From an uncultured Oscillospiraceae bacterium (lineage in GTDB: Bacteria; Bacillota; Clostridia; Oscillospirales; Oscillospiraceae): a stretch of DNA of 64,000 nt. Below the pieces are notes generated by a model. It saw nothing but the letters and a program-made list of their open reading frames with translations. It searched no databases and was not told where the DNA came from. Both the position numbers and the translations under genes were made by a program. The stretch spans positions 80,406 through 144,405 of the forward strand of contig CANQXG010000001.1 of the NCBI GenBank assembly GCA_947627735.1, in the 5' to 3' direction. Positions 3,302 to 60,905 of this stretch are shown piece after piece; position 1 is the stretch's first letter; each line of letters opens with the position of its first letter.

Positions 3302-4561
3302 TCAGCGGATGTGGCCGTCGCCGCGGACGATGTATTTATAGGAGCACAGCTCCTCCAGGCCCATGGGGCCACGGGCGTGGAGCTTCTGGGTGGAGATGCC
3401 CATCTCGCAGCCCAGGCCGAACTCGCCGCCGTCGGTGAACCGGGTGGAGGCGTTCACGTACACCGCCGCGCTGTCCACGCTGCGGGTGAAAAGCTCCGCC
3501 GCCGCGGCGTCCTCGGTGACGATGGCGTCGGAGTGGCCGGTGGAGTGCGCGGCGATGTGGTCGATGGCCGCGTGCACGTCGTCCACCACCGCCACCGCCA
3601 GGATGTAGTCGAGAAACTCCCTGTCGAAGTCCCCCTCCCCCGCGGCTGTGCCGGGGATGATGGCCGCGGCGCGTTCATCCAGCCGCAGCTCCACGGGGCG
3701 CTTGCCCGCAGCGGCCCTGTCGTCCACCAGCCGCTTTTTCAGCATGGGCAGAAACACATCCGCCACGGCCCGGTGCACCAGCAGCACCTCCTCGGCGTTG
3801 CACACGCTGGGCCGGCTGGTCTTGGCGTTTTCCACGATGGCCAGGGCCTTTTCCAGATCCGCCGCCGCGTCCACGTACACGTGGCATATGCCGGTGCCCG
3901 TCTGGATACAGGGGACGGTGGCGTTGTCCACGCAGGCCCGGATCAGCCCCGCGCCGCCCCGGGGGATCAGCAGGTCGATCAGGCCGCTGGCGGTCATCAG
4001 CTCCCGGGCGCTGTCCCGGGAGGTGTCCTCCACCAGGCTCACCGACTCCTCCGGCAGGCCGGCTTCTGCCAGGCCCTCCCGCAGGGCGCGGACGATGGCG
4101 CTGCAGCTGCGCCAGGCCTCCTTGCCGCACCGCAGCACGCACACGTTCCCGCTCATCACCGTCAGCGCCGCCGCGTCGGCGGTCACGTTGGGCCGGCTCT
4201 CATAGATGATGGCCACCACCCCCAGAGGCACGCTCACCCGCTGGATGACAAGCCCGTCGGGCCGCTCCGTCCGGCGCAGCACCCGGCCCACCGGGTCGGG
4301 CAGGGCCGCCGCCTGGAGCATGCCGTCGGCCATGGCGTCCACCCGGTCCTTATTCAGGGCCAGCCGGTCCAGCATCACCTCCGGCATGGTCCCCCGGGCC
4401 GCCTCCATATCCTGGCCGTTGGCCGCCAGGATGTCCTCCGTATGGGCCAGCAGGCGCCGGGCCATACACCGCAGCGCCTCCGCCTTCCGCTCGCCCCCGG
4501 CATTGGCCAGGGCCTCCCTGGCGGTCTGGGCCGCCAGGAGCATATCATGGGTCGTCATCAT
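3302..4561 (-). CDS. proA: gamma-glutamyl phosphate reductase (419 aa)
   Basis: Colinear with ProA (IYESRPNVTADAAAL, SRPSVCNAEEVLLVH, HSTGHSDAIVT, STRFTDGGEFGLG). The start ATGATG overlaps the proB stop (ATGA). Confidence 0.95.
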   Translation of the reverse strand: MMTTHDMLLAAQTAREALANAGGERKAEALRCMARRLLAHTEDILAANGQDMEAARGTMPEVMLDRLALNKDRVDAMADGMLQAAALPDPVGRVLRRTERPDGLVIQRVSVPLGVVAIIYESRPNVTADAAALTVMSGNVCVLRCGKEAWRSCSAIVRALREGLAEAGLPEESVSLVEDTSRDSARELMTASGLIDLLIPRGGAGLIRACVDNATVPCIQTGTGICHVYVDAAADLEKALAIVENAKTSRPSVCNAEEVLLVHRAVADVFLPMLKKRLVDDRAAAGKRPVELRLDERAAAIIPGTAAGEGDFDREFLDYILAVAVVDDVHAAIDHIAAHSTGHSDAIVTEDAAAAELFTRSVDSAAVYVNASTRFTDGGEFGLGCEMGISTQKLHARGPMGLEELCSYKYIVRGDGHIR

Positions 4562-5506: not shown

Positions 5507-6271
5507 TCAGGGCATGACGTCCTGGGGCAGATATTCCATGGGGTCGGCGCTCAGGCCGTCTTTGGTCATGGCGAAGTGGAGGTGGCTGACCTGGTTCACC
5601 TCGCCCAGGGCCGTGGTGCCCACGGAGCCGATGACCTGGCCCATGGTGACCACCTGGCCCTCCGACACAGGGGGCCGGTCCGCCAGATTGGCGTAGATGG
5701 AGTGGGTGCCGTTGCCGTGGTCGATCTCCACGGTGGTGCCCAGCATGTCGTCGCCGGACACCCGCACCACCGTGCCGCCGGCGGCGGCCAGCACCTGCTC
5801 GCCCGTGGCGCAGGCCACGTCGATGCCGTCATGGGTGCGCCAGTCCGCCATGGTGCTGTCATACATCAGCTCCTGCACGGAGTAGGGCACCTGCACCTTC
5901 CCCGCCACCGGCCAGACGTAGCTGGTCACGGTTTCGGCGAACACCTCCTGGGCGGGAGGCTCCTGCTGGGGCGCGGCGACGTTCTCCTCTTCCCCGCTGT
6001 CCGCGACCTCCTCCGGGGCCACCGCCTCGGGGGCGGGCTGGGCGTCCGGCTCGGTGCGCATGGCCTCGTCTGCCGGGATCATGGTGACGAACGCCCCGGA
6101 CACGTCCACCACCGGTTCCTCTGCCATTGTGTCTTCTACATTAGTCCCCGCGTCGGCGAGCATGATCCAAAAGGAGGTCACGATCACCGCCGCGCACAGG
6201 AAAAGGACTATGTAGAAGCCCTTTCCCCCCAGGGACCCGGCTCTGGCGCCGGACCCGTGCTTGTTTTCCAT
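5507..6271 (-). CDS. M23/LytM-family metallopeptidase with N-terminal membrane anchor (254 aa)
   Basis: TM segment GFYIVLFLCAAVIVTSFWIML. C-terminal M23 motifs HDGIDVA, IDHGNGTHSIYANL and SHLHFAM. GGAGGG RBS. Confidence 0.85.
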   Translation of the reverse strand: MENKHGSGARAGSLGGKGFYIVLFLCAAVIVTSFWIMLADAGTNVEDTMAEEPVVDVSGAFVTMIPADEAMRTEPDAQPAPEAVAPEEVADSGEEENVAAPQQEPPAQEVFAETVTSYVWPVAGKVQVPYSVQELMYDSTMADWRTHDGIDVACATGEQVLAAAGGTVVRVSGDDMLGTTVEIDHGNGTHSIYANLADRPPVSEGQVVTMGQVIGSVGTTALGEVNQVSHLHFAMTKDGLSADPMEYLPQDVMP

Positions 6272-50401: not shown

Positions 50402-51255
50402 TGAGCGAGTGGACACTGCGTTCCTGGCGGGAGGCCGATCTGCCCGCCCTGCGGTCCCTGTGGGCGAACGCCTTCGGGGACGACGAGGCATATATCCGCA
50501 CCTTCCATAACCTGTTTCTCCGGCCCGGCTCCTGCATCGTGGCCCAGGCGGAGGACCAGGTGGTCTCGGCCATGTACATCCTGGAGGGGCCGCTGCTGTT
50601 CCCCCCCGCCGACACCGCCATGTCCACCGCCTACACCTACGCCCTGGCCACGGACCCCGCCTGGCGGGGCCGGGGCATCGGCACGGCGGTGTACCACGCC
50701 TGCGTGGCCTCGGCGCTGGAGCGGCAGGACGCGGCGTGCGTGCTGCCGGCGGAGCCGGCGCTGTACGACTTTTACGCCAAGGCCGCCGGCGCCTCGCCGG
50801 TGAGCTACGCCCGGGAGGGGACGGTCCTGCCGGAGGACCTGGCCGGCCTGGCCCGGAACAAGGCCCAGCCCGTCAGCGCGGGCGAGTATTTCCTGCGGCG
50901 CAAATCCCTGCTGCGGGGCCAGCCCTACGCCGTCATCTCCGGGTCGTTCCTGACCATGGAGAGCTACACCATGAAGCGCTTCGGCGGCGGGTTCTTCTCC
51001 GTGGAGGGGGACATCGCCGCGGCGGAGATGGACGGGGACACCTGCCGGGTGCTGGAGCTGCTGGCTCCCGGCGGGGACTGGATGGAGGTGCTGGCCGCGG
51101 TGGCGGAAAAGCTGCCCGCCAAGGCCTATCAGGTCCGCTCCCCCCTGTTCATGCCCGGCCCGGAGCAGACCCGCCCGTTCATGCTGGCCGCCTTCCGGCC
51201 CAGCAGCGCCGCCCGGATGCCCAAGGGGCTTTGGTGGGGCTTTGCCTTCGACTGA
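50401..51255 (+). CDS. GNAT-family N-acetyltransferase with C-terminal extension (284 aa)
   Basis: GNAT motif A ALATDPAWRGRGIGTAV. The start overlaps the upstream stop. Confidence 0.75.
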   Translation: MSEWTLRSWREADLPALRSLWANAFGDDEAYIRTFHNLFLRPGSCIVAQAEDQVVSAMYILEGPLLFPPADTAMSTAYTYALATDPAWRGRGIGTAVYHACVASALERQDAACVLPAEPALYDFYAKAAGASPVSYAREGTVLPEDLAGLARNKAQPVSAGEYFLRRKSLLRGQPYAVISGSFLTMESYTMKRFGGGFFSVEGDIAAAEMDGDTCRVLELLAPGGDWMEVLAAVAEKLPAKAYQVRSPLFMPGPEQTRPFMLAAFRPSSAARMPKGLWWGFAFD

Positions 51256-51406
51256 GCCGCCGATTACGGTAAACTTTTCGCGTTTTCCGAAAACTTCATA
51301 CTTTCGTAATAACCTTTCACTTTATTTTGTAACATCCGGCAGGTATACTAATAATCGCAAGAGTCAGTTTCATCTTTTTCATTTTGTCCTCAATCCATAG
51401 GGGAAT

Positions 51407-51476
51407 CGCCGGAACATGGTCGCAAGGTTCCGGCGGTTTTCCTTTTTTTGCGCCGGGCGGCCTCCGTTCCCGGCGC
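51407..51476 (+). promoter_or_regulatory. leader with an intrinsic-terminator-like hairpin plus a second hairpin upstream of the GTPase-NYN gene
   Basis: Hairpin 1 is cgccggaac / gttccggcg (51407-51435) followed by gttttccttttttt. Hairpin 2 is gcgccggg / cccggcgc (51450-51476). Both lie 30-100 nt upstream of the ATG at 51506. Confidence 0.55.
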
Positions 51477-51505
51477 TATGTATTGCGGAGCACGGGAGCA
51501 ACTGT

Positions 51506-54058
51506 ATGAACCGGAACCTCACCGTCGGCATCCTGGCCCATGTGGACGCGGGCAAGACCACCCTGGCCGAGGCCATGCTGTACCAGACGGGAAAACTGAA
51601 AAAGCTGGGGCGGGTGGACCACCGGGACACCTTCCTGGACACCCACGAGCTGGAGCGGGCCAGGGGCATCACCATCTTCTCCAAGCAGGCCATCCTGCCC
51701 CTGGGGGACAAGACCGTGACGCTGCTGGACACCCCGGGCCACGTGGACTTCTCCCCGGAGACGGAGCGGGCGCTGCAGGTGCTGGACTGCGCCGTGCTGG
51801 TCATCAGCGGCACCGACGGCGTCCAGGCCCACACGGAGACGCTGTGGGAGCTGCTGGAGCGGTATAAGGTCCCCGCGTTCCTGTTCGTGACGAAGATGGA
51901 CGTGGCCGGCACGGACCGGGACCGGCTCATGGCGGACATCCGCGCCCGGCTGGGGGACGGCTGCGTGGACTTCTCCGGCGACGCCGCCGCCCGGGACGAG
52001 GCGGTGGCCCTGCTGGACGAGGCGGTGCTGGACCGGTATGCCGCCGGCGGCGGCATATCCGACGCCGACGTGACCGGCCTCATCCGTGGCCGGAAGCTGT
52101 TTCCCTGCTACTTCGGCTCGGGGCTGAAGCTGCAGGGGGTGGACGAATTTCTCGCGGGGCTGGACCGGTACGTCCTCCCGCCCGCCTGCCCGGACGCCTT
52201 CGCCGCCCGTGTCTACAAGATCGGCAGGGATGGCCGGGGCGAGCGGCTGACATACCTGAAGCTCACCGGCGGGAGCCTGTCCGTGCGGGAGCCGGTGCGC
52301 TATCTGCCCCTGGGCGAAACGGAGCCTGTGGAGGAGAAGATCAGCCAGATCCGGCTCTACTCCGGGCTGAAATATGACGCCGTCCCCTCCCTGGAGGCGG
52401 GGCGGGTGTGCGCGGTGACAGGCCTGTCCCGCACCTGGCCGGGCCAGGGTCTGGGCGCGGAGCCGGACGGGGCCGCCCCCTGGCTCACCCCCGCCATGGG
52501 CTACCGGATCGTGCTGCCCAAGGGGTGCGACCCCCGGATGATGCTGCCCCGGCTGAAGACCCTGGAGGAGGAAGAACCCCAGCTGCACATCCTGTGGCAG
52601 GAGCGGCTGGGCGAGATCCAGGTCCAGCTCATGGGCGCGGTACAGATCGAGATCCTCAAGAGCCTGGTCAAGGAGCGCTTCGACGTGGACGTGGACATCG
52701 CCGACCGGCAGGTCCTCTACCGGGAGACCATCGCCGACACGGTGGAGGGCGTGGGCCACTTCGAGCCTCTGCGCCACTACGCGGAGGTGCACCTGCTGCT
52801 GGAACCGGGCGCGCCCGGCTCCGGCATCGAGCTGGCCAGCGCCTGTCCGGAGGACCTGCTGGACCGGAACTGGCAGCGGCTGATCCTCACCCACTTGGAG
52901 GAGAAGCAGCACCTGGGCGTGCTCACCGGCTCCCCCCTTACGGACGTGAAGATCACCCTCATGGCGGGCCGCGCCCATCTGAAGCACACCGAGGGCGGGG
53001 ACTTCCGCCAGGCCACCTACCGGGCGGTGCGCCAGGGGCTGATGCAGGCCAAGAGCGTGCTGCTGGAGCCATGGTACGCCTTCCGGCTGGAGGTGCCCTC
53101 CCCCCTGATAGGCCGGGCCATCACCGACATCCGGGCCATGGGCGGCGAGCACGCCAGCCCCATCCCCCAGGGGGACAGGACGGTGCTGACCGGCTCCGCG
53201 CCCGTGTCCGCCATGGCCGACTACGCCGCGGACCTGGCGGCCTATACCGGCGGCCGGGGCCGCTTCGCCTGCCACGTGGAGGGCTACCGGCCCTGCCACG
53301 ACGCCGCCGCGGTCATCGCCCGGCTGGGCTATGACCCCCAGGCGGACCTGGACAACACCCCGGACAGCGTCTTTTGCGCCCACGGGGCGGGCTTCAACGT
53401 CAAGTGGGACCAGGTGCCCTCTTACATGCACCTAGGAAGCTGCCTGCCCTCCCCCGGCCAGACGGAGGCGGAAACGCCGGCGGTGCGGGAGCGGAACCTG
53501 GACATCGACGAAAAGGAGCTGGAGGCCATCATGGTCCGGGAGTTCGGCCCCATCCGCCGGCCCGTGTACTCTGCGCCCCAGGTGAACAGCGCCATCGGCG
53601 TGGAGATGCACGCTCGGAAAAAGCCGGAGCACATCATCGTGGACGGGTACAACGTGATCTTCGCCTGGGACGAGCTGAAGGACCTGGCCGACCGGAGCCT
53701 GGACCTGGCCCGGAGCAGGCTTCTGGACATGCTGGCCAACTACCAGGGCTACACCAAGTGCGACCTGGCGGTGGTGTTCGACGCCTACAAGGTCCCCGGC
53801 GGGGCCGGCAGCCGCACCAGCCACGGCAGCGTGCGGGTGGCCTACACCCGGGAGGGGGAAACGGCGGACATGTACATCGAGCGCCTGACGGACGAGATCG
53901 GCAAGAACGAGACCGTCCGGGTGGTGACCTCCGACCGGCTGGTCCAGCTGGGGGCCTTCCGGGCCGGGGTGCTGCGCACCTCCTCGGGGGAATTTCACGC
54001 CGAGGTGGAGTGGGTCCTGGACCAGATCGCCCAGGCGGTGAAACGAACGCAGTTTTGA
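51506..54058 (+). CDS. EF-G/TetM-family translational GTPase fused to a C-terminal Rae1/YacP-type NYN ribonuclease domain (850 aa)
   Basis: G1 AHVDAGKTT, G3 DTPGHVDF and G4 TKMD. Domains II-V are colinear with TetM/EF-G to about aa 640. A linker follows, then aa 708-850 carry IIVDGYNVIFAW, VVFDAY, ETADMYIERL and VVTSD, matching B. subtilis Rae1/YacP. It is one uninterrupted ORF. Confidence 0.85.
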   Translation: MNRNLTVGILAHVDAGKTTLAEAMLYQTGKLKKLGRVDHRDTFLDTHELERARGITIFSKQAILPLGDKTVTLLDTPGHVDFSPETERALQVLDCAVLVISGTDGVQAHTETLWELLERYKVPAFLFVTKMDVAGTDRDRLMADIRARLGDGCVDFSGDAAARDEAVALLDEAVLDRYAAGGGISDADVTGLIRGRKLFPCYFGSGLKLQGVDEFLAGLDRYVLPPACPDAFAARVYKIGRDGRGERLTYLKLTGGSLSVREPVRYLPLGETEPVEEKISQIRLYSGLKYDAVPSLEAGRVCAVTGLSRTWPGQGLGAEPDGAAPWLTPAMGYRIVLPKGCDPRMMLPRLKTLEEEEPQLHILWQERLGEIQVQLMGAVQIEILKSLVKERFDVDVDIADRQVLYRETIADTVEGVGHFEPLRHYAEVHLLLEPGAPGSGIELASACPEDLLDRNWQRLILTHLEEKQHLGVLTGSPLTDVKITLMAGRAHLKHTEGGDFRQATYRAVRQGLMQAKSVLLEPWYAFRLEVPSPLIGRAITDIRAMGGEHASPIPQGDRTVLTGSAPVSAMADYAADLAAYTGGRGRFACHVEGYRPCHDAAAVIARLGYDPQADLDNTPDSVFCAHGAGFNVKWDQVPSYMHLGSCLPSPGQTEAETPAVRERNLDIDEKELEAIMVREFGPIRRPVYSAPQVNSAIGVEMHARKKPEHIIVDGYNVIFAWDELKDLADRSLDLARSRLLDMLANYQGYTKCDLAVVFDAYKVPGGAGSRTSHGSVRVAYTREGETADMYIERLTDEIGKNETVRVVTSDRLVQLGAFRAGVLRTSSGEFHAEVEWVLDQIAQAVKRTQF

Positions 54059-54093
54059 CCCCGCCGCGCCAACGGCGCGCACCGCCTGGAACG

Positions 54094-54305
54094 CCTCCCC
54101 TGTGCAAGGGGAGGTGGGCGCCTCACGGGGTCCCCAAAAGGCACGCTTGCCTTTTGGGGAGAGGAGGAGCCGCGAGCCATTTGAGCCATGCCGCTTGCGG
54201 CATGGGGAGACCTGGCCACGCGTGCTCCGACGAGGCGGAGGGGTTGTCGGACAATCCCTCAGTCACCGCCTGGTGGCGGCGACAGCTCCCTTTACACAAG
54301 GGAGC
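54094..54305. repeat. composite GC-rich palindromic repeat element (cluster of at least 5 hairpins)
   Basis: Hairpins at 54094-54114, 54131-54160 (13-bp stem), 54186-54205, 54262-54283 and 54285-54305. The outer hairpins are mutually inverted copies. The element shares a core with 56588-56618. Confidence 0.7.
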
Positions 54306-54377
54306 CGTCAATAATGTGCGCCTGCGGCGCGACAACTTCCCCTTTCCCACAGTACGACAGGATCGGAGGATATTTCG

Positions 54378-55007
54378 ATGTTCGATTTCAAGAAAGAGTA
54401 CAAAGAATTTTACATGCCCAAGAACAAGCCGGAGATCGTGAACGTTCCCAGGGCGAACTATATCGCGGTCCGGGGCCAGGGCGACCCCAACGAGGCCGGC
54501 GGCGCCTATCAGCGGGCGATCGGCATATTGTACGCCGTGGCGTACACCCTGAAGATGAGCTACAAGACGGACCATAAGATCGAGGGCTTTTATGAGTACG
54601 TGGTGCCGCCCCTGGAGGGCTTCTGGCAACAGGACGGCATCGAGGGCGTGGACCATTCCAACAAGGCCGCGTTCCGCTGGATCTCCGTCATCCGGCTGCC
54701 GGAGTTCGTCACGAAAGAGGACTTCGACTGGGCCGTGGACACGGCGGGCAGGAAAAAGAAGATGGACTGCTCGCCCGCGGAGTTTCTGACCGTGGAGGAG
54801 GGCCTGTGCGTTCAGATCATGCACCTGGGCACGTTTGACGACGAGCCTGCGACCGTGGCCGTCATGGACGCGTACCTTGCGCAAAACGGGTACGCGAACG
54901 ATCTCTCCGCCGGCAGGCTCCACCATGAGATCTACATGTCCGACGCGCGGAAAGTCCCTCCGGAGAAGTGGAAAACCGTCATCCGCCACCCGATCAAAAA
55001 GCTGTGA
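54378..55007 (+). CDS. GyrI-like small-molecule-binding domain protein (209 aa)
   Basis: MFDFKKEYKEFYMPKNKPEIVNVPRANYIAVRGQGDPN and LCVQIMHLGTFDDEP are typical of the roughly 200-aa GyrI-like family. Confidence 0.7.
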   Translation: MFDFKKEYKEFYMPKNKPEIVNVPRANYIAVRGQGDPNEAGGAYQRAIGILYAVAYTLKMSYKTDHKIEGFYEYVVPPLEGFWQQDGIEGVDHSNKAAFRWISVIRLPEFVTKEDFDWAVDTAGRKKKMDCSPAEFLTVEEGLCVQIMHLGTFDDEPATVAVMDAYLAQNGYANDLSAGRLHHEIYMSDARKVPPEKWKTVIRHPIKKL

Positions 55008-55068
55008 ACCCCTCCCCTTCGCCGGACAAAAGCCGCCGAGGGGGACATGAGCCGAAGGAGATCCAACT

Positions 55069-55791
55069 ATGCGTATAGCGCTGGCATCCTACACCTGCCG
55101 GGACAACGATGTCCCCTTCAACCTCTCCCAGATCGAAAAGGCCATGGCCCGGGTGCGGGGAGAGGCGGACGTGCTCTGCTTCGGCGAGGCCTATCTGCAG
55201 GGATTCAACTGCCTTTGCTGGGACTACGCCGTGGACGCCGGCGTGGCCCTCGACCGCGATTCCGCGCCGATCCGGCGGCTGCGGGCGCTGACAGAGGAAT
55301 ACGGCACGGCCCTTATCACCGGCTACATCGAGCGGGAGGCAGACAGCCTCTATTCCTCCTGCATCGCCGTCGACGGCGGTCAGATCGTACACGATTACCG
55401 GCGCATCTCCCAGGGCTGGAAGGAATACTGGCACACCGACGGCCACTATAAGGAGGGCGACAGGCCGGAGACCTTCCGGCTGCGGGGCAGAGAGATCATG
55501 CCCGCCCTGTGCGGCGATATGTGGGACTATCCGGAGCGGTTCCGCACCGAGCATCTTCTCCTCTGGCCTGTCTATGTGGACTTCTCCGTGGAGGAATGGG
55601 AGCGGGAGGAGATCGCCTCCTACGCCCGCCAGGCGGCCCTGGCGGCGGAGCATGTCCTCATGGTCAACCCCATCGACCCGCCCCACAACCACGGCGGCGC
55701 GTTTTATTTCCGCCGCGGGCGTCTGGTCAGCCGCCTCCCCTTCGACCAGGAGGGCATACTGATCGTCGATATCGGCGACGAGGTTTCATAA
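55069..55791 (+). CDS. carbon-nitrogen hydrolase (nitrilase superfamily) protein (240 aa)
   Basis: Glu motif VLCFGEAYLQG and Cys motif ALCGDMWDYPE. The position of the catalytic Lys appears as YRR (see findings). Confidence 0.7.
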   Translation: MRIALASYTCRDNDVPFNLSQIEKAMARVRGEADVLCFGEAYLQGFNCLCWDYAVDAGVALDRDSAPIRRLRALTEEYGTALITGYIEREADSLYSSCIAVDGGQIVHDYRRISQGWKEYWHTDGHYKEGDRPETFRLRGREIMPALCGDMWDYPERFRTEHLLLWPVYVDFSVEEWEREEIASYARQAALAAEHVLMVNPIDPPHNHGGAFYFRRGRLVSRLPFDQEGILIVDIGDEVS

Positions 55792-55792
55792 A

Positions 55793-56545
55793 ATGCCTAT
55801 GGACAAAGACCTGGAAAAGCGCATAGAGGAACTCTCCGCCCGGTGCGAGAGGCAGAGCCTGGTCACCTCCACCGGCTTTCTCACCATGGCCGAGCAGGCG
55901 GAGGTCACCGCCTGGGCCAAGCGCCGACCGGAGGTGAAGCTGCACTTGGACGGCGGCGGCGCCGCCTGCGAGCGCAAGTGCGCCTTCTTCCTGCCCTTTT
56001 ATGCTGAGGAAGAGGACTTCGACCCCGCCGAGCACATCCGCGCGGTGAAGGTGACCGCCTATTTCGGCGAGCCGGGCCACCGGGACTACATGGGCGCTGC
56101 CCTGGGCCTTGGTGTGCGCCGGGAGTGGATCGGGGACTTTCAGGTCCTGGGCGGCACGGCGTATATCTTCTGCCTGCCCACGGTGGAGAAGCTGCTGGTG
56201 GACGAGCTGACCCAGGTGGGGCGCGTTTCCGTCAGGACAGCCTCTATCCCCCTTGCCGACGTGCCCGCGCCGGAGCGGAAGGTGAAGAAGATGACCTTCA
56301 CGGTGAAGAGCCTGCGCCTGGACGCGGTGGCCGGCGGCATGTTCGGCATCTCCCGCACCCAGGCGGCGGAGCTGATCCGCGCCGGGGCGGTGACGCTCAA
56401 CTACGTCCAGTGCCTGCACGTGGACGCGCCCATAGCCCCCGGGGACGTGATCTCCATCCGGGGCCGGGGCAAGGGCGCCGTCGCCGCCCTGGGCGGCCAC
56501 TCCCGGAAGGACAGGACATTTCTGGAAACGGAGATATATCTGTAA
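55793..56545 (+). CDS. YlmH-like RNA-binding S4-domain protein (250 aa)
   Basis: N-terminal YlmH-type domain (FLTMAEQA, GGAACERKCAFF) and a C-terminal S4 domain (LRLDAVAGGMFGISRTQAAELIRAGAVTLN). Confidence 0.75.
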   Translation: MPMDKDLEKRIEELSARCERQSLVTSTGFLTMAEQAEVTAWAKRRPEVKLHLDGGGAACERKCAFFLPFYAEEEDFDPAEHIRAVKVTAYFGEPGHRDYMGAALGLGVRREWIGDFQVLGGTAYIFCLPTVEKLLVDELTQVGRVSVRTASIPLADVPAPERKVKKMTFTVKSLRLDAVAGGMFGISRTQAAELIRAGAVTLNYVQCLHVDAPIAPGDVISIRGRGKGAVAALGGHSRKDRTFLETEIYL

Positions 56546-59451: not shown

Positions 59452-59477
59452 GACCTGCCCCCAGGGGCAGGTCTTTT
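59452..59477 (+). terminator. intrinsic terminator after the MFS gene
   Basis: Stem gacctgccc / gggcaggtc followed by tttt. Confidence 0.75.
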
Positions 59478-59559
59478 GCCGCGCTTCGTTTGCGACATAT
59501 TTCTGATTCCGTTGCAAACAGAGCGCCCGCAGATTTTCCTTCCGCGCTCCGCCGTTATA

Positions 59560-59568
59560 TGCTATAAT
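59560..59568 (+). promoter_or_regulatory. extended -10 promoter element (TGCTATAAT) upstream of the RNase gene
   Basis: TGcTATAAT lies 36 nt upstream of the ATG at 59605. No good -35. Confidence 0.5.
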
Positions 59569-59604
59569 AGCCGCAAAGCATTTGCTGCCCAAGGAGGCCA
59601 TCTG

Positions 59605-60114
59605 ATGAAACGCATCCTCTCCCTGCTGCTGGCCCTGACGCTGCTGGCGCTGTGCGCCGGCTGCGGCCAGGATCTGGGCGTCATCGGCGGCGCGGACGGC
59701 CCCACCGCGGTGATCGTCGGTGAAACCGTCCCGTCGGACGCCGACCTGCCCGTATACGGCGAGTACTATTACGACCTGGAGAACGTGGTGCTGTACCTGG
59801 CGCTCTACGGCGAGCTGCCGGACAACTACATCACCAAGGATGAGGCCCGTGACCTGGGCTGGCAGGGCGGCTCCGTGGAGGACTACCTGGAGGGCGCCGC
59901 CATCGGCGGGGACCGGTTCGGCAACCGGGAGGGCCTGCTGCCGGAGGCGCCGGGCCGGCACTACACCGAGTGCGACATCGACACCCTGGGCTATGGCTCC
60001 CGGGGCGCCCGGCGGCTGGTGTTCTCCGACGACGGGCTGTACTTCTACTCCGACGACCACTACGAGAGCTTCTCCGAGGTCACCGTCACGGAGGACTATG
60101 AGGTGATATGGTGA
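59605..60114 (+). CDS. barnase/binase-family (microbial N1/T1 superfamily) guanyl-specific ribonuclease with signal/lipoprotein-like leader (169 aa)
   Basis: Leader MKRILSLLLALTLLALCAGC. LPDNYITKDEARDLGW, IGGDRFGNREGLLP and SDDHYESFSEV align to barnase (LPDNYITKSEAQALGW, IGGDIFSNREGKLP, TTDHYQTFTKI), including the catalytic Glu and His. AAGGAGG RBS. Confidence 0.85.
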   Translation: MKRILSLLLALTLLALCAGCGQDLGVIGGADGPTAVIVGETVPSDADLPVYGEYYYDLENVVLYLALYGELPDNYITKDEARDLGWQGGSVEDYLEGAAIGGDRFGNREGLLPEAPGRHYTECDIDTLGYGSRGARRLVFSDDGLYFYSDDHYESFSEVTVTEDYEVIW

Positions 60115-60905
60115 ACACGGTCACACTGAACTGCGCCCGGCTCGCGGACCGGGAGCTGGCCCACACCTACCTGGCCGGGAGCCTGTCCCTGCCGGCGTGG
60201 TACGGGCGGAATCTGGACGCGCTGTACGACTGTCTGACGGACATAGGCCCCTGCGCCCTGGTGCTGGAGGACGCGGACAGCCTCCGCCGGGCGGGCGGCT
60301 ACGGCAGCCGCATCCTGGACGCCATCGACGACGCCGCCCGTGCCAACCCCGCTCTGACGGTGGAATACCGCCCCGCCCCCATGGCCACGCTGTTTTCCCT
60401 GGACGGGGCGAACTACGACCCCCGATGGCCGGCGGTCATACGCCCCTCCGTGCGGGCCATCATCCTCCGGGGCGATGAGATCGCCCTGGTCCACAGCCTG
60501 AAATACGACTACTACAAATTCCCCGGCGGGGGCGTCGAACCGGGAGAGGACCGCATCGCCGCCCTGGTCCGGGAGGTCCGGGAGGAGGCGGCCCTGGCGG
60601 TGCTGTCGGAGTCGGTCCGGCCCTATGGCATGGTCCTGCGCACCGAAAAGGGCGCGGGCGAGCGGGTATTCATCCAGGACAACTACTACTATCTCTGCCG
60701 CACCGCCCCGGAGGCCCTTGCCCAGGACCTGGACGGCTATGAGGCGGAGGAGGGCTTCACCCCGGAAACGGTGGCCCCCCAGACCGCCATCGCCGCCAAC
60801 CGGCGGCCTGACCACGGCCCCAAGTCCCCCCTGATGATCCTGCGGGAGGCCCGGGTGCTGGAAAAACTCATCGCCGACGGCTATCTGCCCGCCGACGGGA
60901 ACTAG
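60108..60905 (+). CDS. barstar-like RNase inhibitor domain fused to a Nudix hydrolase domain (265 aa)
   Basis: The N-terminus LSLPAWYGRNLDALYDCLTDIGPCALVLE aligns to barstar ([29 protein letters not shown]), with both inhibitory Asp residues kept. The C-terminus has the Nudix box GGGVEPGEDRIAALVREVREEAAL. The start overlaps the RNase stop (ATGGTGA). Confidence 0.8.
   Translation: MVNTVTLNCARLADRELAHTYLAGSLSLPAWYGRNLDALYDCLTDIGPCALVLEDADSLRRAGGYGSRILDAIDDAARANPALTVEYRPAPMATLFSLDGANYDPRWPAVIRPSVRAIILRGDEIALVHSLKYDYYKFPGGGVEPGEDRIAALVREVREEAALAVLSESVRPYGMVLRTEKGAGERVFIQDNYYYLCRTAPEALAQDLDGYEAEEGFTPETVAPQTAIAANRRPDHGPKSPLMILREARVLEKLIADGYLPADGN

Follow-up and report, generated by a model that had tools for sequence, protein, structure and literature searches.

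What is the task of a protein in which a translational GTPase of the EF-G/Tet type and a Rae1/YacP-type NYN endoribonuclease are joined in one chain? The question is raised by a gene in a 64,000-nt stretch of contig CANQXG010000001.1 (assembly GCA_947627735.1, uncultured Oscillospiraceae bacterium); this whole stretch is referred to as the window, and coordinates are those of the window unless another locus is named. The reading that we prefer, with a probability of roughly 0.55, is that the protein would act as an mRNA nuclease that is targeted by its GTPase to stalled ribosomes in need of rescue. We favour such a ribosome quality-control enzyme because the GTPase seems to carry a specialised A-site probe, the tether between the two enzymes varies in length, the nuclease is a Rae1 domain, the gene is often coupled to ylmH (encoding an S4-domain factor that acts on obstructed 50S subunits) and the fusion is inherited like a core gene. 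The coding sequence and its parts are as follows.

51506..54058, + strand: whole coding sequence, stop codon included, for the 850-residue EF-G/Tet-type GTPase with Rae1/YacP NYN nuclease (translation, Pfam, homologues)
51515..52174, + strand: G domain, residues 4-223 (Pfam GTP_EFTU, E 1.7e-47)
52193..52465, + strand: beta-barrel of domain II, approximately residues 230-320 (AlphaFold2 strands at 233-317; colinear with EF-G)
52517..52699, + strand: domain III, residues 338-398 (Pfam EFG_III at 22.1 bits, just under the 27-bit cut-off; structural match to EF-G)
52709..53053, + strand: domain IV, residues 402-516 (Pfam EFG_IV, E 7.5e-17)
53057..53305, + strand: domain V, residues 518-600 (Pfam EFG_C, E 3e-16)
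53294..53434, + strand: Cys/His-rich C-terminal extension of the GTPase, residues 597-643 (invariant columns; shared with an unfused Ligilactobacillus salivarius homologue)
53435..53626, + strand: flexible tether, residues 644-707 (predicted local distance difference test, pLDDT, below 50 at 650-705)
53627..54055, + strand: Rae1/YacP-type NYN endoribonuclease domain, residues 708-850 (Pfam NYN_YacP, PDB matches)

The original prediction, made from the sequence of the window, had described a single uninterrupted frame of 850 codons, and translation of 51506-54058 (+ strand) indeed gave 850 residues and no internal stop. The longest open reading frame (ORF) of that frame opens at the ATG at 51416 and would encode 880 residues. 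We nevertheless set the start at 51506, because the N-termini of homologues match this position (MKKLxxGILAHVDAGKTT) and a GGGAG Shine-Dalgarno sequence is found 8 nt upstream of this ATG.

A chance fusion or an assembly artefact is excluded, since the same single frame recurs in nearly all related loci, in many protein clusters and in cultured species. A protein search returned more than 120 clusters of 62-99% identity that have the same four or five Pfam domains and carry source names such as 'NYN domain-containing protein [Oscillospiraceae bacterium]'. When residues 596-850 were used to scan one genome for each species, at least 573 relatives came up. The best 80 are the species loci considered here (named with L numbers); all belong to Oscillospiraceae, Ruminiclostridium or further Clostridia, for the most part as metagenome-assembled genomes from the gut. 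GTPase and NYN domain lie in a single ORF at 79 of these 80 species loci, which speaks against a frame split into two genes. With HMMER, run over 1.84 billion representatives, 340 clusters (50% identity) were found at E <= 1e-30, most of them 820-1000 residues long, and the fusion is also present in the cultured species Monoglobus pectinilyticus (862 residues) and Agathobacter rectalis (933 residues). One locus, L011 (an uncultured Oscillospiraceae metagenome-assembled genome, CANRNF010000004.1), has an in-frame stop at 5755-5757, equivalent to residue 514, which could reflect a pseudogene, a sequencing error or recoding.

The architecture itself has been mentioned twice before and never been studied experimentally. 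Fusions of a TetM-like GTPase and NYN_YacP in Clostridia were noted by Atkinson 2015, without experiments and with the function left open, together with the proposal to test for rRNA RNase activity or an RNase-based resistance mechanism (PMC4342817). Matelska et al. 2017 listed the fusion for 'some Clostridia' and called its role unclear (PMC5499597). The window protein fits this class: its Tet/EF-G-like GTPase is N-terminal and its NYN_YacP domain C-terminal, both in one chain, and its source belongs to the Clostridia. The original prediction knew of no functional description, and the searchable literature indeed contained no functional or experimental study of the fusion and no mention of a link to ylmH. 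The architecture as such is not unreported; what is new here is the ylmH linkage.

The surroundings of the gene are those of ordinary chromosomal DNA of a spore-forming Clostridium relative, with spoIIIA, spoVA, dxs, xseA, recN and tyrS in the window. A relative with 80% identity has the same flanking neighbours around the fusion gene, which is single-copy and has a conserved chromosomal position in related species. The family is large, vertically inherited, chromosomal and core-like. These observations bear on the idea of a toxin-like or anti-phage effector that shuts down translation, for which it can be said that NYN/PIN nucleases and translational GTPase-like modules both occur in defence systems. 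PADLOC matched neither the fusion protein nor its NYN domain nor the neighbours. Nothing resembling an antitoxin accompanies the gene, its setting is neither mobile nor that of a defence island, and the single copy at a conserved position is a further point against such a role. We consider it far-fetched, and the phage-triggered shutdown that the original prediction had offered as one option finds no support in the PADLOC result and the core context.

The GTPase module has everything expected of a translational GTPase of the EF2 family (sensu Atkinson 2015): motifs G1 to G5 (G1 AHVDAGKTT, G2 T56, G3 DTPGH within DTPGHVDF, G4 TKMD and G5 GSG), the catalytic histidine (His79) and domains II-V. 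Of the Pfam profiles that the original prediction had named, GTP_EFTU, EFG_IV, EFG_C and NYN_YacP matched, and EFG_III stayed below its cut-off; the latter profile does exceed the cut-off in some relatives, and EF-G_D2 (PF22042) is on record for many homologues of the fusion protein. The AlphaFold2 model is of moderate quality (mean pLDDT 74.9, predicted template modelling score (pTM) 0.59) and has the EF-G fold, the top Foldseek matches in the PDB all being EF-G over approximately 690 columns (E ~1e-52). In a set of 73 full-length distant representatives (38-56% identical to the window protein; all conservation values below refer to this set unless stated otherwise) D14, G16, K17, T18, T56, D75, P77, G78, K130 and D132 are conserved in 100% and His79 in 99%.

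The tip of domain IV, the part that reaches into the A site in factors of this type, deserves separate attention. The loop GRAHLKHTEGGDFRQATYRAVRQGLM is invariant in 32 closer homologues, and among the distant representatives H494 (97%), T495 (95%) and D499 (99%) are still nearly invariant. Window residue His491 is aligned with the tip histidine of EF-G, and domain-IV loop I (GGRGQ in EF-G) is 4 residues shorter. Judged by its sequence, the tip is neither Tet-like nor typical of EF-G, and the constraint on it suggests that it makes a specific contact within the decoding region.

The likeness to Tet(M) raises the possibility of a ribosomal protection protein, directed against tetracycline or another A-site drug, with the RNase as an accessory domain. 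Such a function is suggested by the RefSeq labels of the A. rectalis and L. salivarius relatives and by the comment of Atkinson 2015. The best NCBIfam match of the window protein is moreover tet_protect (NF012153), and the GTPase is colinear with Tet(M) and Tet(O) over approximately 595 residues in a single aligned stretch, with the same five-domain EF-G-like layout and the same short G' region. However, every Tet model scores far below its cut-off: tet_protect 389.9 bits versus 775, Otr(A) 305 versus 900, Tet(Q) 250 versus 1425, TetM/W/O/S 237.8 versus 1100 and one further Tet model 202.6 versus 1420. Against the window protein, the scores of EF-G equal or exceed those of Tet(M) and Tet(O), and the EF-G equivalog TIGR00484 reaches 254 bits with a cut-off of 659.4.

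When the window protein is aligned with a genuine Tet(M), one that AMRFinder places at 99.69% to the reference, overall identity is 30%, and GLYYSPVSTPADF of Tet(M) lies opposite GRAHLKHTEGGDF of the window protein. Loop III of Tet(M), YYSPVS, is thereby replaced by AHLKHTEGG (AHLKHTEGGDF), a replacement that is invariant in the 32 homologues. Unlike the tet genes, the window gene has no tet leader peptide and no mobile-element context, and the fusion is inherited in hundreds of species with local synteny conserved in close relatives. Drug protection is therefore very improbable as the function, and the earlier statement that this is not a classical ribosomal protection protein, together with the loop replacement on which it was founded, has been borne out. 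With EF-G the window protein shares the intact G motifs including the catalytic histidine, the tip histidine and the highest structural similarity found; it differs from EF-G in the shortened G' region (which splits the match in two), in the shorter loop I and in having an extension, a tether and a nuclease.

The same GTPase subfamily also occurs without a nuclease. The 644-residue GTPase of L. salivarius pMP118 (LSL_RS10690) is 51% identical over the whole GTPase and shares the extension (DSVFCAHGAG..W...MH) and a similar domain-IV tip, whereas tether and NYN domain are absent and its neighbours (an rpsN paralogue and tkt) differ from those in the window. In RefSeq both this protein (locus L091, 3983-5917; L. 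salivarius UCC118 pMP118) and the A. rectalis fusion (L090, 3983-6784) are named 'TetM/TetW/TetO/TetS family tetracycline resistance ribosomal protection protein'. On the TetM/W/O/S model the score of the L. salivarius protein is 259 versus 1100, and on tet_protect it is 374 versus 775; by these scores the labels are probably over-annotation, and such mislabels could inflate resistome counts in gut metagenomes. At locus L091 (3399-5917) the unfused GTPase gene lies in divergent orientation next to the rpsN (S14) paralogue and a gene for a 35-residue 'putative metal homeostasis protein'. This arrangement recalls the loci of ribosomal paralogues used in zinc starvation, which is intriguing in view of the Cys/His motif of the GTPase.

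This motif is located in residues 597-643, which we assign to the GTPase as an extension of the subfamily rather than to the linker, because the unfused Ligilactobacillus homologue has them as well and its chain ends right behind them. The consensus of the extension is ...GYRPC...DSVFCAHGAGFxVKWxxVxxYMH, in which C597, C624, H626 and H642 are conserved in 93, 93, 81 and 93%, respectively. This pattern suggests a metal site, possibly a mini-domain that binds zinc; residues 612-630 were modelled by AlphaFold2 with low confidence. Tet(M) and Tet(O) also have a functional C-terminal extension after domain V, and that of the window protein is longer and Cys/His-rich. In structures of TetM on the 70S ribosome the C-terminal extension of Tet(M) lies near h44.

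With the extension assigned in this way, the linker of about 65 residues in the original description corresponds to the tether of residues 644-707, so that the estimated length stands. It contains one conserved helical motif (IDEKELEAIMxREFGPIRR, approximately 667-685) and its length ranges from 61 to 193 residues in the 73 representatives (median 82). Given the low model confidence and the variable length, a leash would fit better than a rigid fusion. Extra domains (e.g. S4) were sought in the long relatives of 938-1156 residues and none were found, their additional length consisting of inserts in the G domain and longer tethers.

The C-terminal 143 residues are clearly of the Rae1/YacP type, as had been proposed. 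NYN_YacP (PF05991) matches residues 710-848 with E 2.7e-42 and 145 bits, compared to a gathering score of 24.6, over positions 1-141 of the 166 in the profile. Residues 710-847 align with residues 4-141 of B. subtilis Rae1/YacP (PDB 5MQ8/5MQ9; E 2.6e-23). The four acidic positions that the original prediction had recognised, D713, D759, D788 and D810, are aligned with D7, D53, D81 and D104 of Rae1, and each of them is 100% conserved in the representatives. Both catalytic centres are thus under strong purifying selection, and both modules look active.

Rae1 and the NYN domain of the window protein share their fold family, NYN_YacP, and are 39% identical over residues 1-143. Rae1 of B. subtilis is, however, a stand-alone protein of 170 residues encoded in the operon cysS-mrnC-rlmB-rae1, whereas the window domain forms the C-terminal 143 residues of an 850-residue GTPase, is not a single-domain protein, lacks the last ~27 residues of Rae1 and is encoded near ylmH instead of in an operon of the cysS-mrnC-rlmB-rae1 type. 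Approximately half of the relatives keep a C-terminal tail of 20-39 residues, and in 30 of 74 aligned proteins (~40%), the window protein among them, 10 residues or fewer follow the NYN core. Stand-alone rae1 genes accompanying the fusion were looked for by tblastn of the NYN domain against PLSDB, and in the Monoglobus and Agathobacter records, which are partial genomes, just the fusion itself was matched. Taken by its sequence, the protein is a chromosomal, housekeeping-type one that consists of two active-looking enzymes on a flexible tether.

Another important finding was the association with ylmH. YlmH is an S4-domain factor that, together with RqcH, takes part in alanine tailing on 50S subunits obstructed by peptidyl-tRNA (PMC11317155; PMC13622287). 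The genes concerned in the window are:

54378..55007, + strand: GyrI-like small-molecule-binding protein (Pfam GyrI-like, E 1.8e-19; GC content at third codon positions, GC3, 0.86)
55069..55791, + strand: carbon-nitrogen hydrolase family protein, ending 1 nt before ylmH (Pfam CN_hydrolase, E 1.5e-12; GC3 0.85)
55793..56545, + strand: YlmH homologue with N-terminal domain, YlmH_RBD and S4 (Pfam; PDB 8S1P chain V)

The product of 55793-56545 matches YlmH_RBD (36.4 bits versus 23) and weakly S4 (21.8 versus 22.8 bits), and it aligns with residues 28-249 of B. subtilis YlmH (PDB 8S1P chain V; E 2.6e-24). It scores below the cut-off of the cyanobacterial Sll1252 equivalog (99.7 versus 201.6), as expected for a non-cyanobacterial member.

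In the first homologous loci that were inspected a YlmH_RBD gene of ~250 residues was found downstream on the same strand, the other neighbours varying by locus; an S4 domain is also on record for this gene at L004/L005. The spacing is a gap of 120 nt at L001, an overlap of 14 nt at L004/L005 and an overlap of 4 nt at L008. Of the 80 species loci and the window, 78 extend for 900 nt or more downstream of the fusion gene, and in 39 of these 78 the next gene is ylmH, on the same strand. L020 and L023, hidden by the overlap filter, are two more cases outside this count. Genes overlap or are spaced by 6 nt or less in 32 of 40 ylmH cases, the 14-nt overlap being the commonest.

All-against-all clustering of the flanking ORFs showed ylmH to be the sole neighbour family common to more than 18 of the 81 loci and the sole one that goes beyond lineage-specific synteny. 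The next families (ABC transporters, an MFS-type transporter, a hydrolase and a phosphotransferase-like family, as read by eye) occur at 18 loci or fewer. In a neighbour-joining tree of the fusion proteins the ylmH linkage fills two well-separated clades in which the other neighbours differ. The frequent translational coupling of ylmH to the fusion gene is independent support for a role in ribosome rescue.

In the sister species represented by L012 and L013 the GyrI-like and CN_hydrolase genes are absent and ylmH lies within 3-120 nt of the fusion gene; the two genes in the window therefore represent an insertion into an ancestral fusion-ylmH pair. The insertion is confined to this lineage, and the GyrI-like gene is probably not part of the system. 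Two minus-strand ORFs, 54123-54989 and 54994-55692, were first taken as the intervening genes. They have no Pfam or NCBIfam matches and their GC content peaks at codon position 1; on the basis of GC by codon position they are antisense shadows and the real genes are on the plus strand.

Does the nuclease then act on mRNA? A different ribosome-directed role would have the GTPase bind ribosomes that are immature, damaged or idle, with the NYN domain cutting tRNA or rRNA (e.g. 16S rRNA close to the decoding centre, or the ends of precursors), in the maturation, inactivation or turnover of ribosomes. The YacP-type NYN domain was first predicted to act in rRNA/tRNA maturation, and rae1 of B. subtilis is located in an operon with rRNA-processing genes (PMC5499597). 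The proposal of Atkinson 2015 to test rRNA RNase activity (PMC4342817) points the same way, and a part of YlmH in ribosome biogenesis is considered as a possibility in the study of that factor (PMC11317155). The extension is, moreover, strongly conserved, and by analogy with the Tet(M) extension at h44 the start of the tether may emerge near rRNA. On the other hand, Rae1, the sole characterised member of NYN_YacP, cuts mRNA, the domain studied here is 39% identical to it along the whole core, and a variable tether of 61-193 residues argues against a precise seat on one rRNA site. We regard cleavage of rRNA or tRNA as rather unlikely.

A second alternative keeps mRNA as the substrate and regards the fusion as a regulated housekeeping enzyme, this lineage's version of Rae1 for gene-specific mRNA decay, the GTPase serving as a generic ribosome anchor, so that transcripts would be tuned rather than ribosomes rescued. 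In line with this, B. subtilis Rae1 down-regulates spyA/yrzI, bmrBCD and fliY at programmed stall sites, and in the window protein and the ~40% of representatives without the Rae1 tail the GTPase could have taken over anchoring. The distinction is not sharp, as this idea overlaps heavily with stalled-ribosome rescue and programmed stalls and rescue are two faces of one activity, but the coupling to ylmH points to quality control. Transcript tuning as the main task is in our view clearly improbable.

For stalled-ribosome rescue, the reading that we prefer, the following course of events can be envisaged. The module in its GTP form would dock at the factor-binding site and the A site of a ribosome that cannot proceed, be it one that has stalled and whose A site is accessible, or one that has collided and is caught before translocation. 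Docking would raise the local concentration of the tethered Rae1 domain at the mRNA of that ribosome or at the disome interface. The NYN domain would then cut the mRNA, after which GTP hydrolysis would free the factor. Ribosomes behind the cut would become non-stop complexes to be cleared by trans-translation, and the 50S-peptidyl-tRNA complexes resulting from subunit splitting would pass to RqcH with YlmH.

Several elements of this course have a basis in the behaviour of Rae1, which depends on translation for its cutting of mRNA and feeds trans-translation; according to a 2026 preprint Rae1 makes substrates of trans-translation on collided ribosomes (PMC13622287). We infer the binding to ribosomes, the mRNA substrate, the preference for stalled or collided ribosomes, the gating by GTP and the link to tmRNA and ribosome quality control (RQC).

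The original prediction had also taken the nuclease to be an A-site enzyme that the GTPase delivers to stalled ribosomes. Delivery to stalled ribosomes is retained as the best reading and is strengthened by the ylmH link. The A-site premise was abandoned: the A-site docking model of Rae1 (Leroy et al. 2017) has been withdrawn by its own authors in their 2025 paper, and consequently a GTPase with its domain IV in the A site cannot simply deliver an A-site nuclease. A tether of 61-193 residues would suit a nuclease whose reach extends to another place on the ribosome or disome.

A number of observations weigh against stalled-ribosome rescue by a GTPase-targeted nuclease. The published cut site of Rae1 is at -12 from the A site, on the mRNA-exit side and far from the seat of an EF-G-like factor, so that the model needs a long tether, action across the disome interface or another cut site. 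B. subtilis Rae1 needs no GTPase for its work, so that the module added here may be there for something else. That the protein binds ribosomes, what it cuts and how it depends on GTP are all derived from homology, and the placement of the NYN domain relative to the GTPase in the AlphaFold2 model is unreliable because of the low-confidence tether and the pTM of 0.59. Approximately half of the species have no adjoining ylmH, including the loci of the cultured A. rectalis and M. pectinilyticus, and in the window two unrelated genes separate the fusion gene from ylmH.

The trailing ribosome of a collided pair is thought to be trapped before translocation. A speculative geometry would have the factor bound to this trailing ribosome, with the mRNA entry side facing the tail end of the leading ribosome, and binding there would reconcile an EF-G-like site with the published cut site of Rae1. 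An extension of the preferred reading, which we put forward as a tentative possibility, is that the fusion and ylmH together form a compact bacterial version of no-go decay coupled to RQC, in which the GTPase would sense the pre-translocation state of the collided ribosome, GTP would license a cut at the disome interface, perhaps with splitting, and the 50S subunit would be handed to YlmH-RqcH.

Functional analogues of such a device are the collision nucleases SmrB of E. coli and Cue2 of yeast and the splitting factors Hbs1-Dom34 and MutS2. Recruitment to a stalled or collided ribosome lets these nucleases or NTPases cleave the mRNA or separate the subunits, upstream of tmRNA or RQC. They have no kinship in sequence or fold with the fusion (SMR domains, ABC/MutS ATPases and eRF1-like proteins being involved) and none of them joins a translational GTPase and a nuclease in one chain.

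Rae1 has lately been recognised as the collision-responsive mRNA nuclease of Gram-positive bacteria. A natural fusion to a factor with a known ribosome site is a built-in positional constraint on Rae1 and, if the reading given here is true, would show where and how Rae1-type nucleases engage stalled ribosomes. The fusion offers both a structural and a genetic handle on this engagement, and a GTP-locked complex could be used for cryo-electron microscopy. With hundreds of clusters at 50% identity, in at least several hundred species of gut Clostridia including the abundant human commensal A. rectalis, the fusion is probably one of the main routes by which a large part of the gut microbiota controls the quality of translation. 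The operon link to ylmH would furthermore join the mRNA-cleavage branch (Rae1/tmRNA) to the 50S branch (RqcH/YlmH), which are treated as separate in B. subtilis.

We also found a conserved element of ~120-160 nt upstream of the fusion gene (51290-51449), between the stop of a GNAT gene (51255) and the fusion start. Two features lie within it:

51327..51355, + strand: promoter-like site, TTGTAA, 17-nt spacer, AATAAT (consensus scan; inside the element conserved in L009, L014 and L015)
51400..51449, + strand: strong hairpin with a U run after it, in the 5' leader or intergenic region (RNA fold; stem pairing kept in L014)

The same element, which contains in addition a CU-rich stretch, is present at L009 (~4050-4200), L014 (~4020-4170) and L015 (~4040-4190), near base-for-base identical although the proteins at these loci are just 76-86% identical, and it is not found in the sister species L012 and L013. 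The RNA fold of 51362-51520 has a free energy of -61.2 kcal/mol (z = -3.25), and in L014 the pairing of the hairpin stem is kept through a two-sided change from GGAAC/GTTCC to GGACC/GGTCC. A search of 51000-56000 against Rfam with permissive thresholds gave no match, the hairpin and the conserved element included. The hairpin is a candidate leader of the fusion gene; it could terminate the unit upstream, act as an attenuator or form the 3' end of a small RNA. For the element as a whole, a small RNA and an attenuator are again possible, as is a promoter/operator. A small minus-strand ORF in the element (MKKMKLTLAIISIPAGCYKIK) was rejected as a gene since its peptide differs between species.

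Downstream of the fusion gene, the 320 nt that follow its stop (54059-54377) are densely filled with GC-rich palindromes (e.g. CCCCTGTGCAAGGGG, CCCCAAAAGGCACGCTTGCCTTTTGGGG and GCCATGCCGCTTGCGGCATGG), none of them followed by a T run, which could be elements of the repetitive extragenic palindromic type or the scar of an insertion. Elsewhere in the window, a gene for a barnase-family ribonuclease (59476-60114, + strand) overlaps the start of a gene (60108-60905, + strand) whose product combines a Barstar domain with a NUDIX hydrolase domain, an unusual inhibitor fusion.

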